Positions 14 through 46,056 of a stretch of DNA of 64,000 nucleotides are shown here, piece after piece. Origin of the DNA: a phage; the sequence record NC_101835.1. One strand, given 5' to 3'. Numbering within the stretch: the stretch's first letter is position 1; each line of letters starts with the position of its first letter. The notes beneath the pieces are model-generated. The model was not told where the DNA came from and did no database searches. It saw only the letters and a list, made by a program, of their open reading frames with translations. A program made the position numbers and the translations under genes.

Positions 14-874
14 GTGAAAGTTGTAAAACGGGACGGTAGAGAAGAGGTCTATAACGGAATTAAGGTGATCAAGGCGGCAGAGTCCGCCTTACTTGAGTCT
101 GGACATACTGAAGAAGAAGCTTACCGGATCGCCTGCGCGGTTAATGAAGTTGTTGCTAACAATCTACCAACCGACCAGTGCACGATCTCTGTAAAAAATA
201 TCCATATCCTTGTTGAAGACGCTCTTATGGATATGGGTTTAAAATGTGCAGCCAGAGAATACATCCAGTATAGGCAGACAAGAGATAATAACAGAGAGGC
301 AGGTGGAAAACTGCTTGCAGATATTAGTGGCTTCTTGGATCGCACTTGTGATGAATTTACAAAAGAAAACGCAAATAAGCCTACCAATCATGTACACACT
401 CATCGTGACCTGCTTGCAGGCATCCTTAGCAAACACCTTGCATCAACACAGATCCTGCCAGACCGTGTCTCAGAAGAGCACAATAGAGGCTTCATCCATG
501 TGCATGATCTTGACTACTTGATCAGTCCGTTAACAAACTGTTGTTTGGTAAATTATCCAGATATGTTGGAAAACGGATTCAATATTGGTAACGCCCATGT
601 CAGTAAGCCGAAGTCAATAGGGGTTGCAACAACAATCCTTAGCCAAATCTCTAGTGCGGTAGCTAGTGCTCAATATGGTGGTCAGACTATGAGCCATATT
701 GATCATTATCTGGCACAGTATGCTGAAGCAACCTATGAGAAGAACCTTAAATTTTGCCAGGAACATTGGTTGCCAGATGCTGAGACTGTTGCAATGCAAA
801 TGACAGATAAGGACGTGTTTGACAGCATGCAGACGTTGCTTTATCAGATCAACACACTAACCTCGGTAAACGGT
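14..874 (+). CDS. nrdD: anaerobic ribonucleoside-triphosphate reductase NrdD, exon 1
   Basis: GTG start at 14 after GGAGAG; ATP-cone-like N-terminus and class III RNR core; reading frame hits a stop right after ...LTSVNG. Confidence 0.85.
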
Positions 875-1131
875 TAACAAACTGGCCGTTTTAAAACTCT
901 GCTAACCTCAGTATGAGGGGTCAGCTGATCGCTGGCTAACGGGGAACGCTAAGGCGAAAGCTATGCCAATCCCGTGACTAGCTTCACAAGGAGTGAGGCG
1001 GTTGTAACGACTAACCTTTTGGTGTAGGGATTATGGAAGATTCCGAAACGCAGAGGTCTGATTAATAATCACACGGTGTGATTTCAGGCAAGAGATAGTC
1101 TGGCCTTGTGGAAACATAAGGGTGGGGACCG
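875..1131 (+). mobile_element. group I intron in nrdD, no ORF
   Basis: Exon 1 ends on T(874), intron ends on G(1131); exon 2 resumes in frame (NG|QTPFITLSLGLDTS); P7-like agatagtctgg near 1093. Confidence 0.6.
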
Positions 1132-1431
1132 CAAACCCCTTTTATCACATTAAGTTTAGGTCTGGACACCTCAGTATTTGGTAGAATGATTACCAAAAAC
1201 TACTTGAAAGTCCACAAAATGGGTCTTGGTGAAGAACGTATCACACCTGTGTTCCCTAAAGTGCTGTTCTTCCTAGAAGATGGTGTCAACATGAACCCTG
1301 GAGATCCTAACTATGATTTGAAACGATTAGCTCTGGAATGCTCTGCAGAGCGGATTTATCCTGACTTTGTTTCTGTTCCACTAAATCGTAAAGTGACAGG
1401 CTCGACAGATGGTAAAGTAACGAGCATGGGT
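1132..1431 (+). CDS. nrdD: NrdD, exon 2
   Basis: Colinear with class III RNR (QTPF...GLGEERITPVFPK...NPGDPNYDLKRLALECS...VTSMG); frame closes 2 codons after MG. Confidence 0.8.
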
Positions 1432-2193
1432 AAACTATAACTGCTCATGTAAAATCTATCTAAACGGGGAAACTCCAGAACGGACAATCCCGTGCTAAAC
1501 GTAACAGAACTCCTGACCAAGAGGAGTCCTGAAATGAGAAAACAAATTCGTGATTTTGAAGGTTATGAAATTGACGAGATGGGCAATGTTTATTGCACCC
1601 GCTACGAAAATGAAAGAATTATTCATTCGTGGGAAGAGATAAACACAGGTTACCGTCTTGTTAGGATACGCAAGAACAAAAAGACTGTTTGCCTAAGGGT
1701 TCACAGACTTGTTGCTGAAGCGTTCTTACCAAATCCAGACAATTTACCCTATGTTAAGCACAAAGGGGACAACAGGAAAGATAACAGTGTATACAACCTT
1801 GAGTGGGGAGCTTGCCCAGACAATACGCAAGAAGGATACAACAACAACTGTTATGCTTTTTACACAAGATGCCACGGTGTGAAAGCCACCAACAAATTAA
1901 CTGGTGAGGTTTTCCACTTTAAAAGTCTGAGATGTTGTGCTGATGTTTTAGGAGTGGATAGAAAAAGAATATCTGCTATCCTGAAACGTGGTGCGCCTAA
2001 TAACTATGATTACGAGTTCTGTTACGAAATGCCTAACGACTAACCGTGATGAATGTAGCGGTGTAGGGTGTAAGCCGATGACACTCGAAATGGTAGACAC
2101 ACTAAGTGTGAAGATATAGTCTGATCTGCATGGGAACATGCAGCAGCACGTAAAGGTGCGGGGGTGGACTTGCGAACCACCCTGAACATAATG
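1432..2193 (+). mobile_element. group I intron in nrdD carrying an HNH homing endonuclease ORF
   Basis: 5' splice site after T(1431), last nt G(2193); exon 3 resumes MG|CRSFLSKY; aagatatagtc core motif at 2111-2121 downstream of the ORF. Confidence 0.6.
1492..2043 (+). CDS. intron-encoded HNH homing endonuclease
   Basis: HNH_3-type motif VHRLVAEAF...KHKGDNRKDNSVYNLEWG; lies wholly inside intron 2; true start may be the ATG near 1534. Confidence 0.75.
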   Translation: MLNVTELLTKRSPEMRKQIRDFEGYEIDEMGNVYCTRYENERIIHSWEEINTGYRLVRIRKNKKTVCLRVHRLVAEAFLPNPDNLPYVKHKGDNRKDNSVYNLEWGACPDNTQEGYNNNCYAFYTRCHGVKATNKLTGEVFHFKSLRCCADVLGVDRKRISAILKRGAPNNYDYEFCYEMPND

Positions 2194-3171
2194 TGTAGAA
2201 GTTTCTTATCGAAATATAGCGACCCTGTAACAGGCGAGGAGAAATACCTTGGCAGATTTAACTTAGGCGTTGTTAGCATTAACCTGCCAATGATTGCGGC
2301 AAAAGCTAAAACGGAAGGTGTTGATTTCTTTGCAGTTCTTGACGAATACCTGGATCTTGCATACGAGGCTCACCTTGTAAGGGTTAATCGTCTAAAAGGG
2401 GCAAAGGCAGGGCAGAACCCTATCATGTGGTGTGAAGGCGCTCTTGCTCGCCTGGATCCTGAAGAGAGTATTGATAAACTCTTCTATGACGGGTACGCTT
2501 CCATCAGTATTGGGTATATTGGTGTGTATGAAACCTGTCAGATTTTGGGCAGAGAGGGTGACAAGGCTTTAGCTCTTGGAATCCTTCAGCACATGAGAGA
2601 TGCTTGTGAGAGATACAAGAAGGAAAGTAGACTAGCGTTTAGCTTGTACGGCACCCCTTCTGAGAGTCTATGCTATAAAGCTGCAACCTGTCTGGATCGT
2701 GAATATCCTGAAGTGTTGAAGCACGAGCATGAATATCTCACCAACAGTTTCCATCAGCCAGTATGGATCAATAGCTCTCCTTTTGATAAGTGGAAGTATG
2801 AGGAAGGTTTTGCTATGATCTCCTCTGGTGGCAACATCGGATACGTAGAGACACCAAATCTGAAAAACAACTTAGATGCTTTGGAAGCTCTTGTTGATTT
2901 CGGATATAAACACATTATGTATTTTGGTATCAACCAGCCTGTGGATAAATGTCTTAAGTGTGGTTTCTCTGGTGAGTTCAGTGCAACAGCTAAAGGGTTC
3001 TGCTGCCCTGCGTGCGGATGCCACGATGAACAATATATCTCAGTGATCCGAAGAGTGTCTGGCTATCTCTCCAGCCCGAACAGTAGACCGTATAACACAG
3101 GTAAACAAGCAGAGGTTATCGAACGTGTTAAACATGTTGGGAATGTAGACTGGTGTCCGTTGAGTAAATAA
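2194..3171 (+). CDS. nrdD: NrdD, exon 3 (glycyl-radical domain)
   Basis: GRFNLGVVSINLP, C-terminal zinc ribbon CLKCG...CPACGC, glycyl radical motif RRVSGYL. Confidence 0.85.
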   Translation, partial: CRSFLSKYSDPVTGEEKYLGRFNLGVVSINLPMIAAKAKTEGVDFFAVLDEYLDLAYEAHLVRVNRLKGAKAGQNPIMWCEGALARLDPEESIDKLFYDGYASISIGYIGVYETCQILGREGDKALALGILQHMRDACERYKKESRLAFSLYGTPSESLCYKAATCLDREYPEVLKHEHEYLTNSFHQPVWINSSPFDKWKYEEGFAMISSGGNIGYVETPNLKNNLDALEALVDFGYKHIMYFGINQPVDKCLKCGFSGEFSATAKGFCCPACGCHDEQYISVIRRVSGYLSSPNSRPYNTGKQAEVIERVKHVGNVDWCPLSK

Positions 3172-3280
3172 GGAAAGAGATTGAGAGCAAGGATGCTCTC
3201 ATTTTTGTTTTTATTGACTTCTATTCCTCTTTTCTATAGTATGCAATATAAAGTGAATAGCGGAAGGGTCTGGTCTGGTA

Positions 3281-4213
3281 ATGAGGAGACTAACAACCGA
3301 AGAGTTTATAGAAAAAGCTCAGACTATACATGGTGACAAATATGATTACTTCAAAGTGGAGTATAAAAACAACAAGACACCTGTGTGTATAATTTGTCCT
3401 GAGCACGGTGAGTTCTGGCAAACCCCTGTGGCACATGCTTTCAAGAAGCATGGTTGTCCAAGGTGTGGTGGGTCAGCGAAAAAGAACACTGAAGAGTTCA
3501 TAAAAGAGGCTATGGTTGTTCATGGGGACAAGTACGATTACTCATTAGTCAAATATGCGAACATGAGAACGCCTGTAAAAATTGTTTGCCCTGAACACGG
3601 TGTGTTTGAACAATACCCTGAAAACCACTTATACCAAAGAAACGGCTGCCCAGAGTGCTATGACTTAAGACGTGGGCAAAGTCAAGCGTTAACCCATAAG
3701 GAGCATGCTGCAATTATCCACAAAGCCAACCCAGACATAGAAATATTAGAGAAAATTGCCAATGATAACACAAAAGTGCAATGTAGGTGCAAAATTTGTG
3801 GGTATAAGTGGTCTGCTAAACCTAATAACCTAAAAAGTGGTCGTGGCTGCTGTAAATGCGCACAAAATGGATTCTTATCTCATGAGTACGGTAAACTCTA
3901 CATTATGGTTGATGACTTAGAAGTGCCAACACTTATGAAAATCGGTGTATGCGTTAAAATGCACAGGAGGAAAAATGAGGTGCTTAACAGTGCTCGTAAA
4001 TCTGGCGCAGGTGTCCACACTCTTCACGTAGTAAAAACGTGGAGCGGATCAACTCAAAACATGGTAGACTTAGAAAAATCTGTGCATAAGGCCTTCAGCA
4101 AGTATAAAATAAACTTTCCTGTAAAATTTGACGGTAGCACTGAGTTTTTCTACTACAGGCCTGAAGTGTTTGACACGGTAGAAGAGGTATACAAGAAGAT
4201 TTGTGGTAAATGA
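3281..4213 (+). CDS. T5orf172 (GIY-YIG superfamily)-like endonuclease with three N-terminal zinc-ribbon repeats
   Basis: Three repeats HGDKYDY..V.Y.N..TPV.I.CP.HG.F.Q.P..H...GCP.C; C-terminal LYIMVDD..KIGV...GSTEFF resembles T5orf172. Confidence 0.5.
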   Translation: MRRLTTEEFIEKAQTIHGDKYDYFKVEYKNNKTPVCIICPEHGEFWQTPVAHAFKKHGCPRCGGSAKKNTEEFIKEAMVVHGDKYDYSLVKYANMRTPVKIVCPEHGVFEQYPENHLYQRNGCPECYDLRRGQSQALTHKEHAAIIHKANPDIEILEKIANDNTKVQCRCKICGYKWSAKPNNLKSGRGCCKCAQNGFLSHEYGKLYIMVDDLEVPTLMKIGVCVKMHRRKNEVLNSARKSGAGVHTLHVVKTWSGSTQNMVDLEKSVHKAFSKYKINFPVKFDGSTEFFYYRPEVFDTVEEVYKKICGK

Positions 4214-20661: not shown

Positions 20662-20877
20662 ATGAAGATAGAGATATTTGGTGGAGCTGACAACACTCGT
20701 GGCCTGATTTACCTTGAATTCGATGAATCATACCTGCCAGAGGTGTTAAATATAGACTCTGTTGCTGAGGCTTTGGGAGTAAACCCTAAAGAACTCCACT
20801 CTTGTGCTGAGATCGATGGTTGGGAAGAGACCATGAACATTGATTTCAGTGAAGTAGAGGATGAACCGCTGGACTGA
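20662..20877 (+). CDS. small acidic protein
   Basis: GAGGAG RBS; MKIEIFGG...SEVEDEPLD. Confidence 0.55.
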   Translation: MKIEIFGGADNTRGLIYLEFDESYLPEVLNIDSVAEALGVNPKELHSCAEIDGWEETMNIDFSEVEDEPLD

Positions 20878-21079
20878 CACACAATTAGCTGCCCGGCTAA
20901 AGTGCTGGAAGCACCTATAACACATCTTTCAACTAAATTTCCTACCACCACAATCACTTACCTCCCACACATGACTGTTTGCTTGTTTAGTGAGCAGTCA
21001 TGCCTTGACATTCTTGCCTATCCTGATAAAATTAAGTTCTTCTCTTTTCTTTTACCGAGTAATTCGGGTTTTCTGTTCT

Positions 21080-21300
21080 CTTCGGTTTGAAGGGGTATGG
21101 AGATACACCTGAGTGAACAGGGTGAACAACCGAACCTTTGGCTATGGCATTAGCATGGCGAAGCGGACGGGTGACGAAAGAGGGGCCGGAGGACACCAGT
21201 CACTGCCATATGATATATGGGTGATAACCTGAAGAGTCTGAATAAGTGTTTAAGTACCAGTCAGAGGAAAAGGTGAATGGTAGCCGAAGGGGGGAGGGGG
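21080..21300. other. GC-rich structured island in ORF-free region (possible ncRNA)
   Basis: Several short hairpins with GAAA/GCGAAG-type loops, ends in GGGGGGAGGGGGGG; no ORF. Confidence 0.3.
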
Positions 21301-22439
21301 GTTTCTTGTATCTTTAATTTGTATATTATGTATACACTTGTAAACCAATCTAATCTGAATCTGTTTACCACACAAAGCGGATAGAGACAAATATTGCCTA
21401 TTAAACTTGAATTATTTATAGAAAATACCACAACACTACTTAAGTCTTTGATTTTACACACAAATCCTGCAGATATTCACCCTCCATATTTAACATACTT
21501 GTAACATATTCCATACTCTACCTGCCCGATCAATTCACCCAACTACATCCCCATATTTTCCCTGTCTGTACTACCCCTGCCCCGCCGGGAGTCCCATCAT
21601 ATCTGGCTTTCCAGCAAATATCACACCCACAAATATCATTGCCTGAAGAGGGTTTCATCCCATAATACCTGCCTTACCTGAAGAGCGCTTCATACACCAC
21701 GTAAATTTTTTAATTGACCTCCCCCTGCCCCGCCGGAGAGGTTGGCTTTTCCCACACAGACCTGAAGAGTCAGCCAGAAATATCTGAATAGGCCCAATTC
21801 TACCACGATTTTGACCTGACCTACAGGGAGGCCCGAAGGGTCTAGCTTTCAGCTAGAGTCCTTGCAGGACCTACAGGAGCGCTGCCAGGCGGACGGAATG
21901 GGAATACTTCTCATTCTTATAACAATTCTCAAATATCGAGGCAGTGAGAGAAATTAATAGGCCAGGCCGTTCACACAGTGGCACAACATTTGCAACCTAT
22001 TTTGTGTGGATGAATGAGAATACCTATCATTATGAGAATAGTTATCATTACTGGCAATTTAACATAATACCCATTATGCGCACCACTGGCGATCCATACA
22101 GGGATTGATAACATGAGTTACTGTTTACGCATATAACAATTATATTTATTACTATTTGTGTTGGGTATAGTTAGCAGCCGATAGATTAGATATTGACCTG
22201 CAGACTTCCAACTGTCTAGACGTCTAAACGCCCACACAGCAAGGATTATACATACACAACTGAATGTAAACAGGGCCGCAAAAATGCTACCATACCAGAT
22301 TGTAAATTTTTCATGCAGCACTTGACAAAGAGGAGGAAAACTTGTCTGACATACTGTGACATAATATGACATAATAGTGACACACTGGGCATACTCAACA
22401 CTGGATACAATAACAATTGTTACTATTGCATGCCTCACT

Positions 22440-43002: not shown

Positions 43003-43356
43003 TTAGTGACAATCACCCCAATTACGACCACACAAGTATTCACCTGTGATCTGGAACGGGACTCCCATCATTTTAGAAGCTTGCCAGAAGCAATGTACCA
43101 CCATTTCGCCCACAGGACTCCAGATAAGTTCAAGCTTTCCGTCATCGTTCAAGATAGGATCGTACACCGTGTTTCCGTTTCTGTCAACCACTTCGTTTCC
43201 GTTTTCATCCTTGCGTGCCTTTTTGTACTTATGACCGTCGAACACATGAAGTTTGGCCTCCTGCTCTGCCTTAAATGCTTCCAATTCTTCAATTGTGTCG
43301 AAGGTGTACACAGTCTTATACTTAGGTGTGTCAGGGACCTGAAGTTGGTACTCATC
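43003..43356 (-). CDS. DNA polymerase A, exon 2 (motif C to C-terminus)
   Basis: Begins DEYQLQV (motif C acidic pair after splicing to ...YYH), ends GRNWGDCH as in T7/Pol I C-termini. Confidence 0.7.
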   Translation of the reverse strand, partial: DEYQLQVPDTPKYKTVYTFDTIEELEAFKAEQEAKLHVFDGHKYKKARKDENGNEVVDRNGNTVYDPILNDDGKLELIWSPVGEMVVHCFWQASKMMGVPFQITGEYLCGRNWGDCH

Positions 43357-43632
43357 CAATAGTTCAGGTAGGTCGTTAAGCTACCCCGCACCATTACGTG
43401 CATAGCCATACGTTTTCACGTAGGATCGGACCATCTCATATTCCTATGATAAGCAACCACAGGAATCCTCCCATTTCGACCGCACTTGCTGGTCTACTTC
43501 CTTTCGGAATGGCCTCTGAGCGTTCGCTCTTTTGAGCGCTTCGTTGCGGATTACCTTGCCATAAGGTTTAGGCTTCCCGCAGTTAAAGAGGTTATTCGAC
43601 ATAGATTACTCTATGAAGCCACAATGTTATTT
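43357..43632 (-). mobile_element. group I intron in DNA polymerase gene, no ORF
   Basis: Exon 1 ends on U after ...IIYYH, intron ends on G before DE; splicing rebuilds the YYH|DE motif; 276 nt. Confidence 0.6.
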
Positions 43633-46056
43633 ATGGTAATAAATAATACGACGAACACCTTCATCGTACCACCCACGCTTCACCATTTGGTGGTGCATAA
43701 GTATCCCAACCAAGTCACACAGCGATGCACCACCATTCTGTTGATATGCATTAAGTAAAGAGTGTTTAGATCGGGTCCAGATGGCATGACCATCAAAAGA
43801 GTAGATAAACTTCTTACCCGTTGCTTCCCAGAATTTCTCCAGATCCTCTTTACGGCCCTTAAGACCAGGGTTGGCATCCCAAAGCGCATCGATTACCCTT
43901 TGTCCCAACTCTGGAGAGATGTCCAGCATATCTGCAACTTTATCTTTTTGTGCCCCGTACATAACCCCATACGTGATAGGTTTACCGTCGTTACGGGACA
44001 CCTCTCTACCTGCTACTTTTGTATATGCCTCAGCATTGTTTTGGTGTGCGTCCCCGTTACTTACAACATCGTAATACAGGCCGTTGTCGAACTCAAAGGC
44101 ACCCCAAGCCCCGATAAGCTGCTCTAAGTTGGACCCGTCAATACCGATCTCAAAGTATCCCGGAGGAACACCCCACAGACTACGCATCTCTTTACCCATA
44201 ACCACTTTAGGAGATGGTTTAGGCATGTTTGCACAAATACTGTGTTTCTGTCTGGAAGTGTTTGTTAATCCAGAGCTTTTAGCAGGAAGCTTATGGTCAA
44301 TCTTCAAACGTGGGTGATTAAGAAGACCAGTGTCAACCTTATCCTCCTTGATTGGATCAAGTACCGATCTGCGGTTTCGCAATGATAACCATAAGACGAT
44401 ATCTTTAGCCATCTCTCCGTTCAATTTTTCAAGATTCGGACACAGGTGTCCAAACGTATCTTTCAGTTGCGGAGAAGTAATAAGTGCCCTAGCTTTTCTA
44501 CGTATTTTCCCGAATACTTCCTTTTTAATCCTTTCGGAGTTAGGAAAGCTTCGGAACTTGTGCACTGTTGTCTGAAACTTAGCATCAGTTTTGTTCCAGA
44601 AGTTGATAATTAGGTCACAATACTCTGACTCTAAAAGCTCGTCCATGTATGCATATACTCGTGCATCAACATCTGCATCAGGTAGAGCTTTCTTCTTGCT
44701 GTCTTTAGTTACATCCTTAGTTCTCCACATTGTCGGAAGCCAACCAGCACTGATCAGGTATCGCTTAATGTCGTCCTGATTGCTGATTTTCATAGGTATC
44801 TTGCAGTCAGGCATTCGCTTCTGCTGCAGATCGCTTATTGCCTGATCCATCAGCTCTTTAGGCAAAGGTTGTGGTGTGGAGGTGCCCTTAATATAACCTC
44901 TCAAGAAATCAGCCATCTTGTCGGGGTCTTTGCAGCCCATCTCTTCACACCATTTTATCCCCATCTTACTGACATCTCCTGTGGAGGTAAATGCTCTCTT
45001 AGGCGGGGCTTTGAACTCTAGAGCGCTCATGTCTACAGGATAGCCAAGCTTATCTTTTAACCATTTCCAACCATTATTAGAGATTGTCCCGTCTTGGTTA
45101 AACGGCTTTTCAGGGAACTTGGGCCGCTGAGACATTGACAGCTCTTTTAAAGGCAGTTGTGGTTCAACACGATCAGCGATTTCTTTCATCCACGCATCGC
45201 AACGGTCACGTAAAGCAATAGCTCCATCTATGTCGAAGTATACACCCTGACGGGCCTGCAGCTCCATCAGGAAGTGCTGCAGCATGCCTCGACGTAATGC
45301 GTTCTTCCAGGTGATCTTCTTGAACCCTTTCGGCTTCTCTTTGGCAGGATCGTACATAAAGTTCTGCATGTCAGATTTGCCGTAGAATACACCTTTTGAT
45401 TCCGCTACCAGTTCTTTCCAGAGCAGCTCCTGGATGATAACGTCCTCAAATACACGATCCACATACTTCCACAACGGAAGATCGCGCCAGTCATCAATTT
45501 GAACTTTCTGGTTACCAAGGGCATAGCCCCATGCCATAAGGCCGTGGGGACCAACAGGCTGCATTTTCTTAGTAACCGGGTTGAATACAGCGTCCGGACA
45601 ACCTTTTGGTAAAGGGCGATCAGGCCACAAGATTCGGCTCATCGCCAACGTATCAAACAGGTTAACCTGGTGGTCGTTGATAGTCCCCATGCATTTAGGA
45701 TCACGGAACATATCAAAATGAATACCGGATAATCTTTCCATCAGCATAAAGTCATAACTGTAGCAGTTATGGCAGTTCAAAGCTGTTGGTGACCAGTCGG
45801 AATTGCCTGTAAGCCAACCTTCCAACTCCGAAAAATCTGCTATGCGAACTTCAAAACCTTTATAAAGAGTTTTCTTTGCCAGAATGAAGTTCTTAGCCTT
45901 TTCTATATCCTCCTCGGAGTAGTGTGTGCGGTCATTTAGAGGAAGGAACAGCATAAAACGGTTCTTATTCAGCTCTTTAAACAGGCCGCAGTGATAATAA
46001 AGATCTGGATCTTCCAAAAGCCCTGAGGCCTCCAGATCGAAGCACCAATTACTCAT
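43633..46056 (-). CDS. DNA polymerase A, exon 1 (3'-5' exonuclease and polymerase motifs A/B)
   Basis: Exo I FDLEASGL; motif B RNDGKPITYGVMYGAQ; upstream of motif C colinear with T7 gp5. Confidence 0.8.

Follow-up and report, generated by a model that had tools for sequence, protein, structure and literature searches.

A compact group I intron lacking an endonuclease gene in an rV5-like phage's DNA polymerase gene

The family-A DNA polymerase gene of the phage sequence analyzed here is split within its catalytic motif C by 276 nucleotides that very probably (we put the probability at roughly 93%) form a bona fide IA2-type phage group I intron, predicted to be spliced from the message of this essential gene. 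The window, by which we mean the whole 64,000-nucleotide stretch of record NC_101835.1, is, to judge from its sequence, that of an rV5-like Vequintavirus, a coliphage. An earlier note made from the letters of the window had placed a compact, ORF-less group I intron at 43357..43632. These coordinates prove exact, being fixed both by intron-less alleles in related phages and by the exon junction of GenBank protein QXV84155.1.

Results

The insert parts the motif C histidine from the Asp-Glu pair

The long polymerase ORF lies on the minus strand (43627..46056(-), 809 aa), a detail on which the earlier note was silent, and finishes ...GVRRIIYYHK before a UAA, just as that note had read it (RRIIYYH-K-stop). 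In that frame the following ORF, 43003..43359(-), translates as (TTG)DEYQLQV...GRNWGDCH, with the beginning and the end that had been described, and exactly the claimed 276 nt (43632..43357) lie between the CAU (His) codon of the first and the GAU (Asp) codon of the second. Exon 2 begins GAU GAG, the Asp-Glu of motif C, and ends GRNWGDCH; taking out the insert fuses CAU to GAU GAG in frame and gives a 925-aa protein. The terminal U of the upstream exon (43633) and the terminal G of the intervening sequence (43357), which had been cited as marks of group I splicing, are both present. The features of the locus are collected in Table 1.

In PDB, HMMER matches the spliced product to chains of T7 DNA polymerase (E ~1e-15), in an alignment that spans the junction (query rriiyyhdeyql, T7 aymawvhdeiqv). 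With BLASTP against T7 gene 5, translated from NC_001604, the main alignment likewise crosses the junction (E = 3e-19). The noted likeness to T7 gp5 is borne out by that record, which reads AWVH653-D654-EIQVG (V652-H653-D654-E655) and has the C-terminus GPNWAICH; the C-terminal BLASTP alignment is weak (E = 0.54), and both proteins finish N-W-x-x-C-H. The T7 alignment puts the intron inside motif C, with the His before it and the Asp-Glu after it, where it had been said to lie: YYH^DEYQL in the window and WVH653^D654EIQV in T7 (a caret marks the junction here and below). The Pfam DNA_pol_A profile matches residues 620-822 of the product just under threshold (31.8 bits against 34.3), and exon 2 alone finds only chance matches among the PDB sequences. 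We take Asp654 of T7 and Asp882 of Klenow to be the motif C metal-binding aspartates.

As read from the sequence, exon 2 has neither an ATG of its own nor a Shine-Dalgarno-like sequence upstream. Its sole in-frame start candidate is the TTG made by the last three bases of the intron. The correct product would be one 925-aa polymerase.

Table 1. Features of the interrupted polymerase locus (window coordinates)
Feature	Position	Strand	Basis or remark
Exon 1, family-A DNA polymerase gene	43633..46056	(-)	808 codons, Met1..His808, end UAU UAC CAU; ORF list, translation
P1 hairpin	43619..43636	(-)	exon CCAU + intron AA (43636..43631) with internal guide UUGUGG (43624..43619); Rfam alignment, helix table
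Group I intron, assigned to the IA2 type, 276 nt, no endonuclease gene	43357..43632	(-)	RF00028, intron-less alleles, covariation
In-frame UAA, two codons into the intron	43627..43629	(-)	sequence
P2 hairpin	43600..43615	(-)	compensatory changes in 6/6 pairs
52-aa ORF inside the intron (rV5 hypothetical protein gp222)	43444..43602	(-)	judged not a gene
Catalytic core (P3, P4, P5, P6/P6a, P7 5' strand, P7.1-GUA-P7.2, P8)	43440..43591	(-)	helix table
P3	43591..43586 with 43472..43467	(-)	helix table
P7 5' strand GGCCA	43514..43510	(-)	helix table
P7.1-GUA-P7.2	43509..43478	(-)	helix table
P8	43466..43440	(-)	helix table
P7 3' strand UGGUC	43429..43433	(-)	pairs with GGCCA 43514..43510; P3/P7 pseudoknot, holds the guanosine-binding site
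P9, P9.1, P9.2 peripheral 3' hairpins	43366..43424	(-)	compensatory changes in each
86-aa out-of-frame ORF (rV5 gp221), reaching from the intron 3' end into exon 2	43149..43409	(-)	judged not a gene
3' splice site	43353..43357	(-)	terminal G43357, then exon-2 GAUG (43356..43353)
Exon 2	43003..43356	(-)	117 codons, Asp809..His925; stop 43003..43005

Intron-less alleles fix the insertion point

Used as a tblastn query, the spliced C-terminus returned a single unbroken 537-nt match in the Vequintaviruses PMBT16, V18, EdH4, DrSchubert and B9-1. Intron-less sister phages carry an uninterrupted TATTACCAT^GATGAGTAC at the insertion point. The alleles of DrSchubert and PMBT16 read TATTACCAT^GA(T/C)GA(G/A), and that of PMBT16, TATTACCAT^GATGAGTACCAA, is identical to the predicted ligation product. 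The DrSchubert polymerase CDS has 2778 nt, the sum of exon 1 (2424) and exon 2 (354), and is collinear with the spliced sequence of the window at 96.6% identity; both DrSchubert and PMBT16 are intron-less at ~97% gene identity. The insertion point cannot be shifted, because the flanking bases of the two boundaries differ.

Of 11 Vequintavirus records in an evenly spaced sample of the tblastn matches, 5 are intron-less and 3 have the 276-nt intron; in the last 3 the interruption is larger and is presumably the HNH intron, as their two exon matches were not joined. Close genomes therefore differ in the presence or absence of an intron at one site, the polymorphism expected of mobile introns.

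The exon sequence just past the insertion site also varies. Over its first 18 nt, DrSchubert has GAC GAA TAT CAG CTT CAA and the window (43339..43356) GAT GAG TAC CAA CTT CAG, five synonymous differences. PMBT16, though intron-less, is identical to the window over this interval, and exon 2 of FFH2 and of JLBYU08 has part of the DrSchubert haplotype in common. Such a pattern may reflect co-conversion tracts or divergence of an endonuclease target.

The insert has the fold and the splice sites of a group I intron

A search with a group I model, which had been named as a suitable check, gives a clear answer: Rfam RF00028 matches 43642..43407(-) over the full model length at 64.7 bits (gathering score 50), and, with E = 4e-14 in the 64-kb window, this is not a chance match. 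The minimum free energy z-score of the 276-nt intron is -2.83. At the 5' splice site, U43633 forms with G43622 a U.G wobble, the fourth pair of P1, which closes that helix at the site; P1 is invariant in all homologues of both alignments (12/12 and 17/17). At the 3' splice site, the exon-2 bases GAUG could form a 4-bp P10 with intron CAUU (43626..43623, intron nt 7-10), the first three pairs of which are retained in 11 of 12 homologues.

Every one of the 12 homologues has an early in-frame stop, in 11 of them as AAAUAA or AAGUAA and in TH18 at the ninth intron codon. In the window, the UAA at 43627..43629 would halt translation of unspliced RNA before the ribozyme core.

Group IA2 introns carry hairpins P7.1 and P7.2, linked by G-U-A, between P7 and the 3' strand of P3 (PMC3428280). 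The window has P7.1 as UUCC-GAAA-GGAA, a GUA linker and then GACCAGCAAGUGCGGUC, an arrangement by which we assign the intron to subgroup IA2; GUAG is invariant in the 12 homologues. All core helices in the helix table are intact in the window copy. Its P6 is weak, with 2 canonical pairs and an A.C mismatch, and its P7 contains a G.U pair at a position that is A-U in 10 of the 12 aligned introns.

Covariation supports the helices, including the pseudoknot

Our main alignment holds 12 copies from sequenced phages (Vequintavirus, Seunavirus, Certrevirus, phi92-like, two Vibrio phages, Pseudomonas Pakpunavirus and a Pseudaeromonas phage), aligned after excision of their ORF inserts. Against it we tested a structure drawn by hand, from P1 to P9.2 and with P7 as a pseudoknot. 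Paired bases fill 98.5% of its cells, in contrast with only 34-41% in slid controls whose partners were moved by 1-3 columns. Two-sided compensatory changes occur in 31 of its 57 pairs, and the observed covariation score was matched in none of 500 shuffles. These changes fall in P3 (three covarying pairs), P6, P7, P7.2 and P8; all five pairs of P7 are paired in every one of the 12 sequences, two of them with compensatory changes. MAFFT misplaces P4 and P5 where the introns have a bulged base, and this test included only the two outer P4 pairs.

A wider set, made up of 17 ORF-less copies (the window copy, 5 others from sequenced phages and 11 from uncultivated viral contigs), adds compensatory changes in P4, P5 and P6a and shows such changes in 41 of 63 pairs. 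Unguided, RNAalifold recovers P1-P9.2 from this set with the exception of P7, which is missing because pseudoknots are beyond the program. The alternative that it offers, pairing GUCCG (P7 3' strand/J7-9) with UUG^GA over the 3' splice site, has no two-sided changes, whereas P7 covaries, and we rejected it; a 2-bp P9.0 at the GUCCG/UUG site is possible. The insert belongs to group I by covariation-backed helices that include the P3/P7 pseudoknot, and the identification made in the earlier note is upheld on this evidence together with the Rfam score. Selection acts on the RNA structure of the insert.

The window copy lacks the endonuclease gene that its relatives carry

The earlier note had called the intron ORF-less, and we find no homing endonuclease gene in it. 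Its lone internal ORF, of 52 aa, matches nothing in Pfam, shows no similarity to the HNH proteins that related introns encode, and is absent from the other short introns. The 86-aa ORF that runs into exon 2 has no Pfam match and overlaps the conserved polymerase frame. The window copy, then, has no homing endonuclease of its own.

All homologues that we examined share one insertion site, ...(Y/S/A)YH^DE..., and have their P1 and guide sequence in common. In FFH2, SSE121, CR9, A5-4, SPA01, KLEP7 and CB7, the P6a loop holds an HNH ORF of 156-174 aa, and these proteins are 46-78% identical among themselves. That of KLEP7 matches Pfam HNH_3; that of FFH2, 46% identical to it, has no Pfam match at 1e-3. 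With the HNH protein of the SSE121 intron as query, tblastn reached 859 records, a very broad HNH family within which T7-like polymerase introns were not singled out. The JLBYU08 intron is in essence that of FFH2 with a short hairpin in place of the ORF; the window copy lacks the P5 extension and most of P7.1, and an uncultivated viral contig (L073) has an intermediate form.

A scan of IMG/VR by the P1/guide signature, a pattern of only 16 specified bases, picked out 116 contigs, and 47 of them have a recognizable intron 3' half within 2.5 kb; the remaining matches are truncated loci, divergent introns or chance matches. Complete introns of this family are found in 36 contigs, 17 of them short (236-311 nt) and 19 long (687-919 nt). 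Since relatives hold the same intron with an HNH gene in P6a, the window copy would be an endonuclease-less derivative, by its sequence a typical one and not the smallest.

The window intron also has a mosaic look. At its two extremities, the first 50 nt and the last 50 nt (P9.1-P9.2 and the 3' tail), it is almost the same as the FFH2/JLBYU08 type, whereas P7, P7.1 and P9 agree with the SSE121 type, and P5 and P8 with contig L073. The pattern suggests recombination among intron lineages.

The locus in related phages and in existing records

Over the polymerase region, rV5-like Vequintavirus genomes are 96-98% identical to the window, and rV5 and ~20 other records carry the 276-nt insert at 100% identity. 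The RefSeq record of rV5 gives the polymerase as two separate "DNA polymerase" CDSs, with two hypothetical ORFs in or over the insert. The 2013 rV5 paper gives a polymerase of 775 aa and mentions introns for the terminase gene alone. By contrast, the record of RudolfGeigy (BASEL phage Bas52, MZ501102) annotates the polymerase as a single joined CDS; according to the BASEL collection paper, intron boundaries were fixed through comparative annotation. Joining the RudolfGeigy exons at His/Asp and translating them reproduces QXV84155.1 exactly, and therefore the polymerase junction is already on record in GenBank. The spliced protein of the window differs from the RudolfGeigy polymerase at 9 of 925 residues.

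Some ~20 unannotated GenBank records (MG0656xx), named "Campylobacter phage" with Campylobacter jejuni as host, are 97-98% identical to the E. coli rV5-like sequence of the window, and one of them (C2) is its best match. The host labels of these records look doubtful.

Other interruptions in the window and in its relatives

The window also has a divided nrdD (anaerobic ribonucleotide reductase) gene at 14..3171 (+), in three pieces (14..877, 1186..1440 and 2164..3171) that match Pfam NRDD profile positions 1-154, 180-263 and 263-562. An HNH/I-HmuI-like ORF (1492..2043) lies within the second gap, and sub-threshold group I matches are found at 865..1121 (30.1 bits) and 2038..2143 (35.3 bits). 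The gene probably contains two further group I introns, of which one lacks an ORF and the other bears an HNH gene. The presence of the nrdD interruptions varies among relatives.

Some polymerase genes have a second interruption further upstream: those of SSE121 (358..999), TH18 (436..1156) and CB7 (20811..21523(-)), in coordinates of the extracted loci. The one in SSE121 is a group I intron (Rfam, 63.8 bits) and has an HNH ORF of its own. The window gene is uninterrupted at this upstream site. In Escherichia phage 241Ecol014PP (locus 488..3886), polymerase exon 1 has 969 extra nt that keep the frame, and residues 672-706 give a weak Hint-domain match below threshold. Besides the same 276-nt intron, this gene probably contains an intein, and an HNH gene follows exon 2. 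In the large terminase gene of Escherichia phage Av-05, a stretch is 73% identical to intron nt 8-148, with three matching places in the record, so that the terminase introns of the rV5 paper may be relatives of the polymerase intron.

Discussion

How the polymerase would be made

Our reading provides an account of how a polymerase with an intact catalytic site arises from the divided gene. The gene would be transcribed as a single pre-mRNA, and ribosomes on exon 1 would halt at the UAA two codons into the intron. The intron would take up the P1-P9.2 structure with its P3/P7 pseudoknot. By group I chemistry, a free guanosine bound in P7 would attack the bond after U43633, held in the P1 U.G wobble; the exon-1 3'-OH would then attack the bond after the terminal G43357, with the 4-bp P10 aligning exon 2. 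Translation of the ligated message, UAU UAC CAU^GAU GAG UAC, would yield the 925-aa polymerase with its motif C, YYHDEYQ, restored, and the spliced protein should release the tryptic junction peptide IIYYHDEYQLQVPDTPK.

Some other explanations of the gap can be set aside at once. An intein, a frameshift and a sequencing error are ruled out by the stop codons that the insert has in the polymerase frame, and a group II intron was rejected outright. A less trivial proposal is that the insert stays in the RNA and that the polymerase consists of two polypeptides, of 809 aa and ~117 aa, assembling post-translationally, as those of the split NrdA of Aeromonas phage Aeh1 reportedly do after translation. 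The two CDSs of the rV5 RefSeq record would suit it, as would the non-splicing HNH insertions that the CB7 paper describes in another gene (PMC7344957). It nevertheless seems very unlikely, in that exon 2, with only a TTG and neither an in-frame ATG nor a Shine-Dalgarno-like sequence, is poorly fitted for separate translation, and His would be parted from Asp-Glu within one catalytic strand. Furthermore, purifying selection has kept the ribozyme fold of the insert complete, with compensatory changes, for which a mere spacer would have no use, and the homologous CB7 intron at the same site is reported to splice. Still harder to credit is a decayed, splicing-dead remnant, left behind by the loss of endonuclease and peripheral helices, with the polymerase a pseudogene or helper-dependent. 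The trimmed state of the window copy, with its short P5, missing P5 extension, short P7.1 and weak, A.C-mismatched P6, might invite that idea; against it, every core helix is intact, the polymerase gene is otherwise intact, even shorter copies (236-266 nt) in viral contigs have the same covarying structure, and the identical 276-nt sequence occurs in at least 22 independently isolated, plaque-forming phages.

A milder variant would accept a true group I intron that is spliced in vivo and make it non-autonomous, in need of exon-1 translation or of a host or phage RNA chaperone, so that polymerase supply would be tied to cell physiology. A published study found some phage introns to be excised in infected cells only and not in vitro, and the conserved early in-frame stop codon is in keeping with such a dependence. 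No sequence feature demands a cofactor, however, and we consider this variant rather unlikely. In addition, Bonocora and Shub reportedly observed in 2004 that the same-site introns of PhiI and W31 self-splice under mild conditions.

Origin and persistence of the intron

The comparisons with ORF-bearing relatives point to an ancestor of the window copy that was a mobile intron, with an HNH homing endonuclease gene in its P6a loop; that gene and several peripheral extensions would since have been lost. With the HNH gene gone, the intron would be unable to drive its own spread. Its persistence is probably due to the fact that no deletion short of a precise one would bring back the catalytic-site codons. 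One may also speculate, although we think it doubtful, that an endonuclease-less intron is kept as protection: by splitting the TACCAT^GATGA target, it would confer immunity to the HNH endonucleases of co-infecting relatives, which might even copy it in trans into intron-less genomes. Were this true, it would account for the roughly equal frequency of short copies (236-311 nt) and long ones at this site, across unrelated phage lineages.

The practical value of these results lies in annotation. The RefSeq record of rV5, like many records of its relatives, still gives the polymerase as two genes and adds one or two spurious "hypothetical proteins" within the intron. The intron itself raises no new question. 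Its family also offers naturally minimized IA2 ribozymes (236-330 nt), together with intron-less alleles and endonuclease-bearing ones to match, in easily grown coliphages; these make a convenient system for work on intron homing, endonuclease loss and persistence.

Comparison with known phage introns

It is useful to compare the polymerase intron with those already described. The td, nrdB and nrdD (sunY) genes of phage T4, all of nucleotide metabolism, contain IA2-type introns with early in-frame stops; these introns differ in presence or absence among relatives, and ORF-less derivatives of them are known. Their host genes differ from the polymerase gene considered here, and the window has a split nrdD as well. 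The RudolfGeigy/rV5 intron is the same as that of the window in sequence, exons and junction, with nothing material different.

The intron of Pectobacterium phage CB7 (Certrevirus, Vequintavirinae) that holds CB7_50 occupies the same site, IIYYH^DEYQLEV, and shares the P1/guide sequence and the 3' end of the window intron, with identities of 79% over nt 1-66 and 73.5% over nt 113-248. Splicing of the CB7 polymerase intron has been reported on the basis of RT-PCR and Sanger sequencing of cDNA (PMC7344957). It has 687 nt and an HNH ORF, unlike the 276-nt window intron, which has none, and the CB7 gene has the second, upstream intron that is absent from the window gene.

We take residues 881-883 of E. 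coli Pol I to be His-Asp-Glu, which would make site 881 the His881^Asp882 boundary of the Klenow fragment. The introns of the T7-like phages PhiI and W31 are IA2 introns at position 881 (E. coli numbering) with an HNH gene in P6a (PMC3428280). Compared by description, these introns (AY769989, AY769990) share polymerase gene family, site and subgroup with that of the window; we call the site the same because of the published position together with the Pol I numbering. Their HNH gene has the P6a position that it has in the ORF-bearing relatives of the window intron, whereas the window copy carries none, and their hosts are ~40-kb podoviruses, in contrast with the 137-kb myovirus from which the window derives. 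The polymerase introns of the Bacillus phages SPO1, SP82 and Bastille and of cyanophage Pf-WMP3 lie elsewhere, at position 674 in the fingers region (PMC3428280), and not at motif C. Overall, both the polymerase intron of the window and its insertion site are already known, and the intron is an ordinary member of a known phage intron family.
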